Below are positions 271-15,281 of a stretch of DNA of 59,663 nucleotides, piece by piece. A program made the position numbers and the translations under genes. The stretch is from the IMG/VR virus record IMGVR_UViG_3300034356_001545, positions 1-59,663 of that record, one strand, 5' to 3'. The stretch's first letter is position 1; every line of letters starts with the position of its first letter. The stretch comes from a virus. Its lineage: Duplodnaviria; Caudoviricetes. Under the pieces are notes generated by a model, which was given only the letters and a program-made list of their open reading frames with translations, was not told the origin of the DNA and did not search any database.

Positions 271-1965
271 TTATGCGGTTAGTTCTGCCAGTTGGGCGTT
301 AGTTAAACGGGTTGTGAATAAAAGCACTTGTGCGGTTTTATCAGTAGATGGCCCAATCGCAGTATTGCCTAACTGAATGCGGCTCATTGCTGGCACGCTG
401 CACGAAGTATCGGTGGTTCCGACTTGCACTCCGTTTACAAAAAATGCGGTATTGTTATTTGCATAACCAATCGCTGCCTTGTAAGTTCCAGCGGGTTGTG
501 AGGACAAACTAAGTGATGCTTGTAAAACACCTCCATTATACATTTCGGCAACAATTCCCCCAGAAGCACTTTTAGATATATACACAGTATTACCAAAAGA
601 GCCATTATCAATGTTCAAGAGCGCTTCGTTACCTGTTGCAACCGAAGTGGTAAACTCAAACTCCCAAAAAATGGTGCCTTCGGTTTGACCAATCAAAGCA
701 GAAGCCGAAGTCTTTGAAGCAGCATCCGCAACCCTTGTAACTGATGCCCCAAGCGTGGGGATGTACGAGGTGGCGTAGGCTCCGAGTTCAACTTGAACTC
801 CCCATAGTTGGATTGTGGCACTTGCGTTCATCGGCTCGTTTAATCCTCTACGGATTGCCATCTCAAACACGTTACTTGTTCCAGTTAATGCTTTGGTTAA
901 AGTAAAGCGCTGCCATTGATTGGTAATAGTAAACTTATCATAATTTGAACCATCAATACGGACTTGAATTTGAGCAGTTCCGCTTGCGGTTTTAGCATAG
1001 AATGAACCCGTATAAGTTGCAGTCGTTCCACCAAAGGTTTGGAACATTGCAGAAATATCGCTTGAAGTAGTTCCTGCGCCAACATCAAAAACGATTGTAT
1101 CAGCGTTTTGATATCCATCGGGGCTAATTGCATTGTTAGCCGTTATAACTGGAACAAGACCTGTTCCGCTTTGGGTTTTGCCCCATCCTGCATTATCAAA
1201 CTGCTCCGAGTAGATAGCAAGGTTTGTCCGCTGTGGCTCCAGCAAAAGCTTAGGGCAAGTGCTACCCAAATAATCCAAACGGGGTAAACCGCTAACGGGG
1301 CCAACTGATACCGCTGCGGTGGTGGTTGCGATGTAGTCGGTAGTTACGCCAGCCTCCAACTGCGCTCCCCATACCGCAAACGTCATACCCGATTGACCAA
1401 AGACAATAAAGGTATTTGTAGTTCCCGTAGTAATGTAAGTTCCAGAAACACGATACCAACCATTGCCAACATTCGTAACCGATGAACCAGTAATGCCAGC
1501 AGCAGTTGTAGTGATTGCACCCGTTACTGCGTTGAAGTTTAAAAAGCCATTGACTGGTCCTAAGTCGCATCCTATTTGAATAGCGGTAGCAGAAGTGATG
1601 TTTTTAACGTAAACGCTAAAAGAATGCTCAACGCCATTTGCAACAGTTGGTACTTGATATGCCCCGCTATTTGAGCCACTCGCTGCAATAGTATCTCCCG
1701 TTGTAGTGCCATCGGGAGCAACAGTTGTATTTGCGGTAATTGTAGGTGAAACGTTAGACGCCCAAGTCGTAGTAAAGTCCTCGCTCTGAAGAATAATGTT
1801 CGTCCGCACCTTTTCAATTAGGCCGTTGCTTTGCACACGGGTAGCGCTTGAGGCACGGCTGAAGGTTAGGTCAGCACTACCGTCCGTTGGCACTGCACAG
1901 TAGACCTTCTGGTCTTTATAACCCGAAGGTATCATCACTAAAGATGCGTCACTATAAAAGCTCAT
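271..1965 (-). CDS. Tail fibre/virion protein with duplicated beta-sandwich modules and a LamG-like C-terminus
   Basis: LTFSRASSATRV, RTN..SE.F and WG(A/V)Q.E.G..T.YI.T each occur twice; T/G/A/S-rich. Confidence 0.7.
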   Translation of the reverse strand: MSFYSDASLVMIPSGYKDQKVYCAVPTDGSADLTFSRASSATRVQSNGLIEKVRTNIILQSEDFTTTWASNVSPTITANTTVAPDGTTTGDTIAASGSNSGAYQVPTVANGVEHSFSVYVKNITSATAIQIGCDLGPVNGFLNFNAVTGAITTTAAGITGSSVTNVGNGWYRVSGTYITTGTTNTFIVFGQSGMTFAVWGAQLEAGVTTDYIATTTAAVSVGPVSGLPRLDYLGSTCPKLLLEPQRTNLAIYSEQFDNAGWGKTQSGTGLVPVITANNAISPDGYQNADTIVFDVGAGTTSSDISAMFQTFGGTTATYTGSFYAKTASGTAQIQVRIDGSNYDKFTITNQWQRFTLTKALTGTSNVFEMAIRRGLNEPMNASATIQLWGVQVELGAYATSYIPTLGASVTRVADAASKTSASALIGQTEGTIFWEFEFTTSVATGNEALLNIDNGSFGNTVYISKSASGGIVAEMYNGGVLQASLSLSSQPAGTYKAAIGYANNNTAFFVNGVQVGTTDTSCSVPAMSRIQLGNTAIGPSTDKTAQVLLFTTRLTNAQLAELTA

Positions 1966-2545
1966 AACTCCAAAAATAATTATTGTGAATATTGATTACT
2001 CCTCTGCAAACCTTTGATATAGAGTTTTCGTCAGAGTTTGTTATTTTAGCCGCAGACCTAACACTGTTAAACTGAGCTATTGGTTTTTTATTGATTGTGT
2101 ATTGATATACAATTTTTCCGGTACCAATTCTTGATTCCCTTGAAGCCTCTATTGCTTTTGTTACATCAATCCTTCCGTTATCGTAAGCGTGTTTGGTATT
2201 CTCGCTATGTGTTACCCAATCTAGGTTGTCTACGTGATTGTTTCTTGGATTTGAATCAATGTGATTGACAACCTTCTTATTTTCTGGGTTCGGAATAAAA
2301 GCCTTAGCAACAAGCCTGTGGGCTTTGTTGTAGTATCTCTTTCCATCTTTTTTTAAATAGTAAACTACATAAGGATAAACCAACGACCCAAGTTCTGGTA
2401 TTAAGTTCTTACCTCTTTTAAAATACACAAACTCTTTACCTAGTTTAGACTTAGACTTTATATACCTATCAAGACTCCTTACGCTACCATAGTTACTCAC
2501 TTGATATTCGCCTTCGTAGCCTAGTATGTCCTTCCACTCTTCCAT
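1952..2545 (-). CDS. NUMOD4-HNH-NUMOD1 homing endonuclease
   Basis: EEWKDILGYEGEYQVSNYG (NUMOD4), HRLVAKAF...VNHIDSNPRNNHVDNLDW (HNH), F.SVRSAAK (NUMOD1); start probably 2545 by TGATG overlap. Confidence 0.9.
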   Translation of the reverse strand: MEEWKDILGYEGEYQVSNYGSVRSLDRYIKSKSKLGKEFVYFKRGKNLIPELGSLVYPYVVYYLKKDGKRYYNKAHRLVAKAFIPNPENKKVVNHIDSNPRNNHVDNLDWVTHSENTKHAYDNGRIDVTKAIEASRESRIGTGKIVYQYTINKKPIAQFNSVRSAAKITNSDENSISKVCRGVINIHNNYFWSYELL

Positions 2546-2820
2546 CACTGATTTAGCGCAAAGAAAGAATTTGTAAAGCAATCTTCCGCCTCTATGATGC
2601 CGCCGTCAGCAGTCCATCTTTGGAAGATTAGGTCGATGTAGTTGACGGTGTTACGAACACCAAGTAGGAATACAGCACGCTCAAAGCAAGACTCTCCCTC
2701 CACAGTACCACCATCTGCCGTTACTCGGTTGTAGTAGTCATTGTAGATTAGCTGAGCTGCTCCACGTAGGAATCCAGCACCAGAAGGGGTTAGGCTTATG
2801 CTTAAACCGAGACCAATCAT
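2545..2820 (-). CDS. Small virion-associated protein with two R.xADGG..E..xC repeats
   Basis: ORF in late operon; internal repeat. Confidence 0.65.
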   Translation of the reverse strand: MIGLGLSISLTPSGAGFLRGAAQLIYNDYYNRVTADGGTVEGESCFERAVFLLGVRNTVNYIDLIFQRWTADGGIIEAEDCFTNSFFALNQ

Positions 2821-12659: not shown

Positions 12660-13256
12660 TTACTTTTTCTTTAGCATCTTAAAGTCAATGGCGGAAATCT
12701 TTCCGTCCTTGTTCTTGTCAATCTTTACTTGGCCTCCCATAAGGTACTTCTTCATCTTGCCTCCCATACCGTAATCCATTTTACCTCCGCCGGCCATCTT
12801 CTTGACAGGAGCGGATTCTTTGGCCTTTATTACACGGTTCTCTACGCGAGCTGCTTTCCCAAGAAGTCGGTCAGCCTTACGCTCCCTACCCTCGTCTACA
12901 GCTTTGCTGCCACGTGCTACAAGGTTGGCTTCACGATTCTCAAGTCTTTTGACTTTGTTTCCTACCTTTCCGCCATTAAGGTACATATCCATCTTACCGC
13001 CGCCCATCATCTTCTTGACGGCTGCGGCAGCGGGCTTAGCGGCTGGCTTCTTTTTTACCATAAAGCCTTGCTCCTTGAGTCCACGATCAAACGCAGCCAG
13101 TGCATCGGGGTCATTCTTACGGATGGTGTTGCGCTCCTGGGTTAACATATCCATACGGTTTGCCTTGGCAATCTCCATATCGGTCATCTTCTTCTTGGGG
13201 TCTGGAACGATTGGCGTCTTGCCACCATTCTTGTAAACAGTCATCTTAGCTTTCAT
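12660..13256 (-). CDS. Basic protein with repeated (Y/M)xxGG motifs and C-terminal DxNxDG EF-hand-like loop
   Basis: YKNGG, MMGGG, YLNGG, MAGGG, YGMGG, YLMGG; DKNKDGKISAID; start follows promoter at 13262. Confidence 0.7.
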   Translation of the reverse strand: MKAKMTVYKNGGKTPIVPDPKKKMTDMEIAKANRMDMLTQERNTIRKNDPDALAAFDRGLKEQGFMVKKKPAAKPAAAAVKKMMGGGKMDMYLNGGKVGNKVKRLENREANLVARGSKAVDEGRERKADRLLGKAARVENRVIKAKESAPVKKMAGGGKMDYGMGGKMKKYLMGGQVKIDKNKDGKISAIDFKMLKKK

Positions 13257-13269
13257 AGGTACAAAGATA

Positions 13270-13734
13270 TTATTTAAACGGCTTGTATTTTGTCTTGGTG
13301 CCCTCCTTATAAGCCACAAGTATCTGCTTCCTGTTCTCCCCCTTGCGGTATCCCACGTGAACCCAGTCAGGGTTCTTAGTGGTGCCAAACTCGTAGATGA
13401 GCTGATCGAACTCTAAGTTGTCCTTGATAAACTCAAACACCTCCATATTAGTAACCCCATTACCCCTACCATCTTGGTCTAGGTCAAGAGCACGACCAAG
13501 ATTATGGTCCGAGTTCTTACTGCCCCCTATGGCCTTATTTAAGGCAGCAGATCTGTAGCCCGATGAGATGTAGATAGGAACACCGAAGTGCTCACGGATC
13601 TTATCAAAGACTTCAGTACAGATTGTCTTGAGGTTCTCTAGATGCTCTGGGGTGGGCTCGTTGCTGATGCCTCGCCGCGTAGCGGTGTCACTCTTAGTGA
13701 CCTCAGCTAGCGATACGTAGTTACTTAGTTTCAT
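13270..13734 (-). CDS. Peptidase M15 family endolysin
   Basis: SSGYRS..LN..IGGS..SDH..G.ALD ... WVHV. Confidence 0.88.
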   Translation of the reverse strand: MKLSNYVSLAEVTKSDTATRRGISNEPTPEHLENLKTICTEVFDKIREHFGVPIYISSGYRSAALNKAIGGSKNSDHNLGRALDLDQDGRGNGVTNMEVFEFIKDNLEFDQLIYEFGTTKNPDWVHVGYRKGENRKQILVAYKEGTKTKYKPFK

Positions 13735-13784
13735 AAACAAACTTGTTTTGCGTTGTTAATCATAAGACAAAGATAACAACAATA

Positions 13785-13803
13785 AAAAAGGGCCCGAAGG
13801 CCC
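13785..13803 (-). terminator. Intrinsic terminator
   Basis: GGGCC-TTCG-GGCCC hairpin followed by T-run on minus strand. Confidence 0.8.
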
Positions 13804-13850
13804 TAATCGCAGAATCTGTCGTCACAACACAAAACCACTATGCAAATTTA
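13785..13850 (-). ncRNA. Candidate antisense sRNA to the GIY-YIG nuclease leader
   Basis: TAAATTTG promoter at 13850-13843; 13-nt perfect complement to 14370-14382; terminator. Confidence 0.6.
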
Positions 13851-14362
13851 GGGTTTTCCATCCTAAGTAAAAAATTCGCTGGCAACATAACCCACCTCTT
13901 GTATATCGATAGACCTTTACTGTTGCTGACCTTAGTAGCAGTGCTATATCTTACGTGCTTATCGTAACCCTTACTCCTCCCATTTCGGTTTACCCATTTA
14001 AGGAATGTTGATTGATGTACACCAACAGCTAAAGAGGCTGAAAATGAAGATAGGTAAATCAATTTTGTTTCAATGTCAACATATATGTGAGACACCCCTC
14101 CGTTACCACCACCAGATATGTTGTAGCAGTTCTCTATCCTATACGCAGATATCCACAGGTTCTCAAGATCATTTAGCTGTTGCATTGTTTCTGCCCAGCA
14201 AATCACCTCCGTATGAAAGTTCTCCTTACCGTACACCTCAAATGCATCAACAAGGACCTTTCCAGACCCCTTGTATGACTTACTAAACCTAGAAGACCTA
14301 TGTTGTCCTATGTATATCCAGTTGTTTAACTTGTTGGTTGTCTTGTAGATGTATCCTATCAT
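13838..14362 (-). CDS. GIY-YIG homing endonuclease
   Basis: GYIYKTTN..N.WIYIGQH, Y.GSG, LE...I, YN; start MIGYIY. Confidence 0.9.
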   Translation of the reverse strand: MIGYIYKTTNKLNNWIYIGQHRSSRFSKSYKGSGKVLVDAFEVYGKENFHTEVICWAETMQQLNDLENLWISAYRIENCYNISGGGNGGVSHIYVDIETKLIYLSSFSASLAVGVHQSTFLKWVNRNGRSKGYDKHVRYSTATKVSNSKGLSIYKRWVMLPANFLLRMENPKFA

Positions 14363-14386
14363 AGCTGTATTTGTGTTGTGACAAGG

Positions 14387-14433
14387 CAAATATACGTAAT
14401 ATTTGGTGGTTTGGAAAATATTATGTACCTTCG
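14387..14433. promoter_or_regulatory. Divergent Bacteroidota-type promoters
   Basis: TATATTTG on minus (14394-14387); TTTG...TACCTTCG on plus (14402-14433). Confidence 0.65.
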
Positions 14434-14435
14434 CG

Positions 14436-14695
14436 TTAGACTAAGGTCTAGAGCACTAAAGAAACTAAGGTAAAGCGATCTAAAAGACAATCGCTTTAGC
14501 CAACAAGAGACAGGGTGTCGTCGCCTAAGCAGAGACACCCCACGTTCATCAGTGATAAGACGCTCAGCCACTAATGAATACGCGACAACTATAGTCTATT
14601 CGTTTTACCGCTATTATAGCTGTTGTTTACTCGTTTTCGCATATATAAAGCTAACAAGTAGGAGGTATACGGGTCCTTAGGGACCCTCCACCTCC
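14436..14695 (+). ncRNA. Candidate structured non-coding RNA
   Basis: Promoter followed by at least 5 inverted-repeat stems and no ORF of 60 aa or more on plus. Confidence 0.45.
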
Positions 14696-14800
14696 CAGCC
14701 CCCAATCATTTAACAGCTATTAAGACTCCTACTGTAGTCAATGTATAGGTTTACTTATGCAGCTTCTTCCTCAACCTAAGGGTTGACGTCAGAAGCATTA

Positions 14801-14890
14801 GAGTTAGAAATAATTATCTGGAGTGGGTAATTTATCTAGAATTAGATATAATTATCTGGGGTTAGATATAATTATCTAGGGGATAATATA
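14801..14890. repeat. About four tandem 20-bp iteron-like repeats (TTAGATATAATTATCT(G/A)G)
   Basis: Direct reading; each unit contains an AGATA-N4-TATCT inverted repeat or a degenerate version. Confidence 0.8.
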
Positions 14891-15221
14891 CATATATACA
14901 CGTACGCACGCGCAAACGGAAACGCAATCCCAGAGGTATGGCCCTCGCGCGCGCTGATTCCTATTGCAGGCTTTTGGCGTTTTGGTAGGTCGGCTATGGT
15001 GAGCGGCTATGGCGTTTGGTTGGTAGGTTTGGTGAGGAGTTCCGAAGCGAGGAACAATAGCCCTCCCTAACTATGCCCTAACTACTCCCTTACCCTCCCA
15101 CTACTCCCCACTTACCCCCACAAGGCTATGGGTTATGCATCTACGCTAACCCTCTGACTAAAACTTTTGTCGGTGATTATCAGCAAGTTACGGGTGGATT
15201 AGAAAAACTTTCACCTAAAAA

Positions 15222-15255
15222 CTTGCATATGTCAAAAGTCGTTATCACCTTTACA
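15222..15255 (+). promoter_or_regulatory. Early promoter (CTTGCATAT...TTATCACCTTTACA)
   Basis: Near-identical copy at 16895-16928 and related copy at 17815-17847. Confidence 0.7.
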
Positions 15256-15281
15256 CCATCAATCATTTAATCTACCATCCT

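Follow-up and report, generated by a model that had tools for sequence, protein, structure and literature searches.

Covarying complementary arms at the two ends of a phage GIY-YIG nuclease gene and a proposed fold-back restraint of its message

The expression of a homing endonuclease must suffice for the spread of its gene, yet not harm the carrier. The known controls of such genes come from T4-like phages of Proteobacteria, and comprise local hairpins, promoter timing and autorepression. Here we describe a GIY-YIG homing endonuclease gene in a phage genome, IMG/VR record IMGVR_UViG_3300034356_001545, which was analysed as the whole record of 59,663 b (the window; CheckV completeness 98). A 13-nt sequence at the predicted 5' end of its message is matched by a perfect complement in the 3' untranslated region (UTR). 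Since these end sequences have been kept complementary during evolution, the message can probably fold shut, limiting a risky DNA-cutting enzyme.

T4-type homing endonuclease genes (I-TevI, I-TevII, I-TevIII, segB, and mobE of Aeh1) are described as carrying local hairpins that sequester the ribosome-binding site (RBS) and are bypassed by a late promoter inside (PMC2988022). The likeness to that account is that RNA structure restrains the translation of a phage homing endonuclease, a restraint that is proposed for our locus. The locus differs in that the pairing partner lies ~540 nt away in the 3' UTR, its own promoter includes the arm, and a Shine-Dalgarno sequence is absent. A local RBS hairpin of the T4 type was not found in the leader, which is A/C-rich and unstructured and has its partner at a distance. 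According to the same source, I-TevI also acts on an operator to repress its own promoter, and is thus another homing endonuclease with its own negative control element at the promoter; that control is protein-DNA binding, however, whereas RNA-RNA pairing is favoured here. An earlier note on this DNA had set the distal arrangement apart from the local T4 hairpins, and this is borne out, as neither the hairpins nor the autorepression described in PMC2988022 matches it.

In hok (hok/sok, plasmid R1) and aapA1 (Helicobacter pylori), the tac/fbi stem and a 5'-3' long-distance interaction, respectively, are described as locking the full-length toxin mRNAs in a stable and untranslated form (PMC9841398, PMC5416894). 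As far as those accounts go, our locus resembles both in that the 5' end of the mRNA of a harmful protein pairs with the 3' end, with coupled covariation, and in that an RNA complementary to the 5' region, here a candidate, may add a second layer. The differences are that the product is a 174-amino-acid (aa) DNA endonuclease and not a small membrane peptide, that there is no Shine-Dalgarno or anti-Shine-Dalgarno element, that the candidate regulator RNA is nested in the 3' UTR of the same strand instead of being transcribed antisense, and that the setting is a phage, presumably of Bacteroidota. The description of the locus in the earlier note as type I toxin-antitoxin-like is therefore apt as an analogy of mechanism but not as membership, since the product is a soluble 174-aa nuclease, not a hydrophobic peptide of less than ~60 aa, and the antitoxin RNA is only a candidate. 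Reportedly, the 3' UTR of the icaR mRNA of Staphylococcus aureus also pairs with its own 5' UTR, at the Shine-Dalgarno sequence, lowers translation and recruits RNase III. In Bacteroidota, translation is initiated without Shine-Dalgarno sequences and few RNA regulators have been described. Our search of the open-access literature found no report of distal 5'-3' pairing or small-RNA control of a homing endonuclease, and the cassette can be regarded as a known regulatory principle, the 5'-3' fold-back, in a new form.

Complementary arms at the two ends of the nuclease message

A repeat search of the window recovered the two arms (Table 1) as 13 nt with 100% complementarity, separated by 536 nt. 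The 13-mer has only these two exact copies in the window, the next match (with up to 2 mismatches allowed) carrying 2 mismatches, and its 10-mer core likewise has two exact copies. By a hand estimate, a perfect 13-mer complement between 45 nt upstream and 100 nt downstream of a gene is expected by chance 7e-5 times (~45 x 100 / 4^13). The nuclease leader and its inverted copy past the stop codon, both claimed in the earlier note, lie at the positions given there, and the perfect 13 nt were confirmed by the repeat search. The 5'/3' complementarity is specific to this nuclease family and not to GIY-YIG genes at large. The longest perfect complement is 5-9 nt in 32 other GIY-YIG loci (6 of the 32 ORFs, or open reading frames, being short or broken, 3 loci incomplete, and one control row, L005, left out for its wrong start coordinate) versus 9-12 nt in five nuclease-family controls. 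The corresponding duplex z-scores are +1.0 to -2.0, with -3.7 for one broken frame of 29 aa, versus -2.8 to -5.5 in the five controls.

The comparison of relatives reduced 60 locus entries to 11 distinct cassettes in six lineages, with protein identities as low as 49%. All 11 retain both arms, the promoter box P1 and the spacing of exactly 4 nt between box and arm. Covariation was counted on an alignment of these cassettes for the 13-pair helix, with 500 shuffles. Paired cells amount to 90.9% versus 82.1% in the shuffles, and the covariation score is 0.266 versus 0.102; in neither case did any of the 500 shuffles reach as high. When the 3' partner was slid by 1-3 columns, only 28-50% of the cells were paired.

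Three positions within the 11-bp core show changes on both sides. Pair 8 is C-G in seven cassettes and U-A in four; pair 9 is A-U in five, U-A in two and U.G in four; and pair 11 is U-A in six, A-U in three, U.G in one and unpaired in one. Pairs 12-13 are kept solely in the group to which the window belongs. On the sense strand, two independent deviations remain wobble pairs (U.G); the antisense strand would have A.C in their place. Because the slid controls fail and the other UTR sequence cannot be aligned, the complementarity itself appears to be under selection. The repeat is real, selected and part of a mobile nuclease cassette, and the alignment supports the view that the arms pair as RNA, covary under selection and move together with the nuclease gene. 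Covariation, the sense-strand wobbles and the helix predicted de novo thus speak for the RNA-level pairing that the earlier note had proposed.

That de novo helix was returned by RNAalifold from the alignment alone (columns 32-43 with 605-616), and the helix and the terminator are the clearest features of the consensus. In partition-function folds of the 11 full-length mRNAs, the 11 core pairs have probabilities of 0.89-1.00, with the exception of the eleventh pair of L020 (0.00). In the window, the 5' arm is paired with a probability of 0.99-1.00, and the terminal helix is present in both the minimum-free-energy (MFE) and the centroid structures of the 598-nt mRNA. By prediction and comparison, then, the 5'-terminal nucleotides pair with the 3' region and show phylogenetic covariation, as in the hok-type architecture.

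We consider it rather probable, judging from the comparative and folding data, that an RNA-level 5'-3' closure, a fold-back similar to those of hok and aapA1, restrains the nuclease mRNA. The cassette would be a mobile transcription unit in which a -7 box and a 20-nt leader precede the ORF, and a 3' UTR and a terminator follow it. Transcription is predicted to begin with the first base of the 5' arm, and the arm in the 3' UTR would pair with the very 5' end of the mRNA over 11-13 bp, closing the ~600-nt message into a fold-back form. Closure would keep nuclease synthesis low where initiation uses short, unstructured leaders devoid of Shine-Dalgarno sequences, and may also protect the 5' end from decay. 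An inner TAnnTTTG box probably also acts as the promoter of a nested RNA from the 3' UTR, ~55 nt long (71-77 nt in distant lineages). Carrying the same arm, this short RNA could act in trans and cover the 5' ends of nascent messages whose own 3' arm is yet to be transcribed. In this scheme we infer where transcription starts, that the short RNA exists and that the nuclease is repressed.

Several observations weigh against the proposed restraint. The first seven pairs (the 5'-most) and pair 10 never vary and are uninformative on pairing, independent compensatory events number only ~3, and the shuffle control overstates significance because the lineages are related. The fold energy of the whole mRNA is ordinary (z = -1.26), with 13 of 100 shuffles folding equally well. 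At the level of the genome, the enrichment of TAnnTTTG, the Bacteroidota -7 box, is mild (59 copies versus 42.8 +/- 6.8 in shuffles, with at least 59 in 2 of 100), and the inner box has no conserved -33 element. The conserved helix spans +1 to +11/13 of a leader of 18-20 nt and stops 7 nt ahead of the AUG. The sequestration of the initiation region suggested in the earlier note thus holds only in part: the helix covers 11-13 leader nt, and sequestration is statistically weak for the start codon, whose pairing with the 3' region beats shuffled spacers in only two of eight cassettes, the window (0.030) and L014 (0.015); the shuffle fraction is 0.12-0.64 in the six others tested. Finally, a strong metastable 5' hairpin was not seen, the first 90 nt folding at -4 to -15.6 kcal/mol with a 3-bp AUG/CAU stem as the only conserved one. 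With a lock in cis alone, nascent messages would therefore stay open to translation, a gap that a trans-acting short RNA could fill.

In the MFE cofolds of each lineage, the AUG is covered by a second helix, but this helix was dropped as a general feature, since it fails versus shuffled spacers in six of the eight cassettes. The first helix, by tethering the two ends, is likely to make some AUG pairing without any further cause.

Promoter boxes, a candidate nested RNA and competing readings

In Flavobacterium, TAnnTTTG is described as occupying -12 to -5 relative to +1 (PMC9723704), which places +1 five bases beyond the final G of the box. Given this position and the 4-nt spacing in 11/11 cassettes, the nuclease mRNA is predicted to begin with the 5' arm itself, whose first base, G14382, is the putative +1. 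The promoter-like box claimed for the last codons of the gene, TAAATTTG, is present there on the minus strand, and the terminator claimed downstream is represented by a terminator-like hairpin with a T-run. When the -12 to -5 rule is applied to this inner box, the predicted +1 falls on G13838, in line with the start near 13838 proposed in the earlier note, and the RNA would be ~55 nt long and end at the terminator.

The inner box is retained as TAAATTTG, TATATTTG or TATCTTTG in all 11 cassettes. The residue is conserved across the cassettes at 58 degenerate codons, of which only six are invariant (ATC5, TAC6, AAG7, AAA100, CCT172 and TTT174). CCT172 is the sole invariant codon of 22 fourfold codons, and TTT174 is one of four invariant among 24 twofold codons. 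The synonymous sites of these two codons are exactly those that TAnnTTTG needs, neither synonymous T falls in a predicted helix, and the 'nn' positions of the box vary along with the encoded residue (K or I). The pattern points to a constraint at the nucleotide level, for which a promoter appears to be the best explanation. Since both synonymous sites of the inner box are invariant when only 6/58 codons are, a nested 3'-UTR RNA of ~55 nt is plausible; this conservation, which exceeds the needs of the protein, speaks most strongly for the separate small RNA of the earlier note. The predicted short RNA consists of the arm followed by the terminator and measures 53-55 nt in lineages A-D and 71-77 nt in lineages E and F, the spacing from inner box to arm being 9 nt or 27-31 nt among cassettes. 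A two-layer lock, in which the 5'-3' closure is joined by a promoter in the last four codons that makes a small RNA silencing its nascent parent message in trans, is a tentative extension that we hold to be possible rather than likely.

In an alternative that we think unlikely, though not far-fetched, a separate RNA of ~55 nt from the inner box acts purely in trans in the manner of an antitoxin, and the cis closure is incidental. It would account for the retention of the inner box at synonymous sites and for the layout of the predicted RNA, a 5' seed followed by the terminator hairpin; in lineages E and F, moreover, nothing else lies downstream for the box to serve, the end of a convergent ORF coming next. 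The full-length mRNA, however, has the same arm at a much higher effective local concentration and closes in silico with a probability of ~1. Taken on its own, the short RNA hides part of the arm in a local hairpin, which differs between lineages, and the constraint on the inner box could have another cause.

Less probable still is a helix that serves stability and not repression, the paired 5' terminus guarding a weakly transcribed message from 5'-end-dependent decay. The helix does set in at the predicted +1, with the AUG mostly unpaired, and the closed full-length forms of hok and aapA1 are described as highly stable (PMC9841398, PMC5416894). It nevertheless takes up 11-13 of the 18-20 leader nt, which, to judge from the account of initiation in PMC9723704, would normally be single-stranded for initiation without a Shine-Dalgarno sequence; besides, stability and repression can coexist.

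Two further readings place the function of the arms in DNA, and both are less parsimonious than RNA closure. The arms could be a pair of operators, one at the start site of each promoter-like box, bound by the DNA-binding domain of the nuclease itself, in the style of the I-TevI autorepression (PMC2988022), or by a phage regulator. Each arm does lie just downstream of a TAnnTTTG box, and the seven invariant bases GTCACAA could be a protein site, but the two sites are inverted relative to their promoters, and the inner one stands at the variable distance given above. Paired changes in an RNA are a more parsimonious explanation than a joint change of two sites and a protein, a sense-strand RNA accommodates the U.G deviations, and the genome has no other copy of the arm; we judge this reading very improbable. 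Least credible of all is that the arms, which do bracket the ORF closely, are terminal inverted repeats of a transposon-like DNA element, a DNA-level end that the earlier note had named as the competing outcome, or a chance or hitch-hiking repeat devoid of function: the conserved unit extends past both arms (the -7 box outside the 5' arm, ~40 nt and the terminator outside the 3' arm), neither a target-site duplication nor a footprint is seen in empty sites, a transposase is absent, compensatory changes occur across lineages whose remaining UTR sequence cannot be aligned, and 13 bp is probably too short for gene conversion.

For the fold-back closure, then, the comparative evidence points to a solution different from those of T4-like phages, namely a distal 5'-3' closure inside a mobile cassette, kept by compensatory evolution and combined with expression signals of the Bacteroidota type. 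If true, it would carry the fold-back principle of type I toxin mRNAs over to another class of genes and another phylum, and would offer a compact and portable expression-damping module, ~35 nt in total, for use in Bacteroidota genetics. Should the two-layer lock also be true, this would be the first homing endonuclease controlled by a small RNA, with a self-restraint module resembling type I toxin-antitoxin systems that spreads with a selfish gene among phages probably infecting Bacteroidota.

The nuclease, its mobile cassette and their surroundings

The N-terminus of the nuclease, MIGYIYKTTN...WIYIGQH, corresponds to the GIY...YIG motif region, and Y4, Y6, Y17, G19, E67 and N81 are unchanged across 71 aligned homologues. 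Pfam scores are slightly under the cut-offs (SegE_GIY-YIG, 23.4 versus 25; GIY-YIG, 21.9 versus 22.6), and the N-terminal domain is common to 93 homologues. A search of the PDB by sequence alone gave nothing at E <= 0.01. For the AlphaFold model, with a predicted local distance difference test (pLDDT) score of 88.6, the three best Foldseek matches are all to the I-TevI catalytic domain (1ln0_B, 1ln0_A and 1mk0; prob 1.00, TM(target) 0.59-0.69, with 0.67-0.69 for 1ln0, E 1.5e-3 to 9e-3). On account of the near-cut-off Pfam matches, the 93 homologues and the fold match to I-TevI, the ORF is identified by motif, modelled fold and sporadic presence as a free-standing GIY-YIG homing endonuclease (I-TevI / Seg type) with predicted cleavage activity.

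A separate observation concerns codons 5-7, ATC TAC AAG (14342-14350, minus strand), whose synonymous sites are invariant in 11/11 cassettes and which make up three of the only six invariant degenerate codons. No convincing pairing partner for them was found, RNAalifold pairing only the AUG with the CAU directly ahead over 3 bp.

Table 1. Features of the nuclease locus (window positions)
Feature	Position	Strand	Remarks
Nuclease leader GTCACAACACAAATACAGCTATG	14382-14360	minus	Includes ATG 14362-14360; predicted leader 20 nt
5' arm GUCACAACACAAA	14370..14382	minus	First 13 nt of predicted mRNA
3' arm UUUGUGUUGUGAC	13821..13833	minus	In 3' UTR; begins 4 nt past stop codon
Inverted copy GTCACAACACAAAACCACTATG	13821-13842	plus	Overlaps TAG stop codon 13840-13838
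GIY-YIG homing endonuclease ORF	13838..14362	minus	174 aa; ATG 14362-14360 to TAG 13840-13838
P1, Bacteroidota-type -7 box TATATTTG	14387..14394	minus	4 nt ahead of 5' arm
P2 candidate, TAAATTTG box	13843..13850	minus	In codons 172-175 (P-K-F-A); predicted +1 G13838
Intrinsic terminator	13784..13804	minus	GGGCC-UUCG-GGCCC then U6 run; hairpin and T-run at 13804-13789
Mobile cassette and slight flank	13742..14423	minus	DNA differing from L003, the closest nuclease-less relative (blastn)
Peptidase_M15_3 lysin gene (neighbour)	13273..13734	minus	Own TATCTTTG box at 13775-13768

The neighbouring M15 lysin served as the anchor for a comparison of 80 related viral loci, kept of 573 confirmed. The nuclease gene lies directly upstream of the lysin in 12 of the 80 loci, a few of the other 68 having too little upstream DNA to judge, and relatives with 95-96% lysin identity have no nuclease gene at the locus. 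The site is an insertion hot spot, since close relatives carry there an unrelated spacer of ~158 nt (158 nt in L003, in place of the cassette of the window), an HNH endonuclease gene, or an ORF on the opposite strand. The earlier note had asked whether the 3' element pre-exists in nuclease-less relatives. Upstream of the lysin, the arms are absent in 25/25 such loci, one of which has a lone 7-mer ~840 nt away; the element therefore does not pre-exist but arrives with the gene.

A scan of metagenomes added a lineage at 49% protein identity (L097-L103) in another genomic context, with the end of a convergent ORF downstream in place of the lysin. Its layout consists of the box, 4 nt, the arm, a leader of 18-19 nt in all, an ORF ending in NP[KI]FA, a spacer of 22-26 nt, the arm, ~15 nt and the terminator. 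The terminator is kept with compensatory changes in all cassettes (alignment pairs 632-635/647-650). The nuclease gene is a self-contained mobile cassette reaching from the -7 box to the terminator and found in two genomic contexts.

The viral scan with a profile of the six lineages gave no full-length further lineage, and neither did a scan of genome contigs, where 15 loci have N-terminal similarity only. P0007, a homologue of 39% identity, gave one weak partial match against viral contigs. A scan of viral contigs for the pattern TATATTTGNNNNGTCACAA yielded 115 stretches; among the 80 inspected, only the known cassette lineages were real, and the remaining matches, at unrelated ORFs or at none, were set aside as chance. 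Four homologues known only from Logan (P0001, P0002, P0005 and P0006) are available as protein sequence only and stand outside the cassette counts. Identities of 91, 86, 68, 64 and 39% are recorded for homologues known only from Logan. For P0001 and P0005, upstream read-through translations (...CHNT...) are compatible with the same 5' arm, although these were not counted.

The host of the phage is probably a member of Bacteroidota. The gene content of the genome includes an ERF protein, a ribonucleotide reductase, a BT4734-like primase-helicase and a crAss-type muzzle domain, and several intergenic TAnnTTTG copies are placed 4-5 nt ahead of start codons. No tRNA genes and no Rfam families at gathering score were found in the window, and a DNA search of phage sequences with the 3-kb region gave no match.

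Other features of the surroundings were recorded in their own right. In the nuclease-bearing lineages A and B, a 30-nt insertion follows the TATCTTTG box of the lysin (13734-13775, minus strand) and forms a leaderless-looking upstream ORF of 10 codons, the TGA of which overlaps the lysin ATG (ATGA). In nuclease-less relatives, the box is followed after 4-5 nt directly by the lysin ATG, which looks like a leaderless lysin mRNA. L005 (3167-3982), L009 and L019 carry an HNH-type endonuclease gene at the insertion site upstream of the lysin, with a TATATTTG box belonging to it; that of L005 has neither a terminator nor 5'/3' complementarity. The opposite-strand ORF occurs at this site in L011, L013, L026 and L030.

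Just upstream of the nuclease promoter, a terminator-like hairpin lies at 14498-14471 (minus strand). It falls in a non-coding stretch of ~900 nt between divergent gene blocks (14395-15281), which is 82-85% conserved in relatives, has no Rfam match, and holds three copies of a 26-nt direct repeat (14799-14882). Downstream of the lysin, a repetitive Lys/Gly/Met-rich ORF (12660-13260, minus strand) carries a TATCTTTG box of its own, 5 nt ahead of an ATG, and its C-terminus gives weak EF-hand and dockerin-like matches (E 6e-4 to 2e-3, under the cut-offs). The window also contains a second homing endonuclease gene, of the NUMOD4-HNH_3-NUMOD1 type (1955-2581, minus strand), which lacks a terminator of its own and has no arms. 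A TATTTTTG box within its last codons stands 5 nt ahead of the ATG of the downstream 564-aa gene, and the inserted HNH gene therefore appears to provide the promoter of its neighbour.

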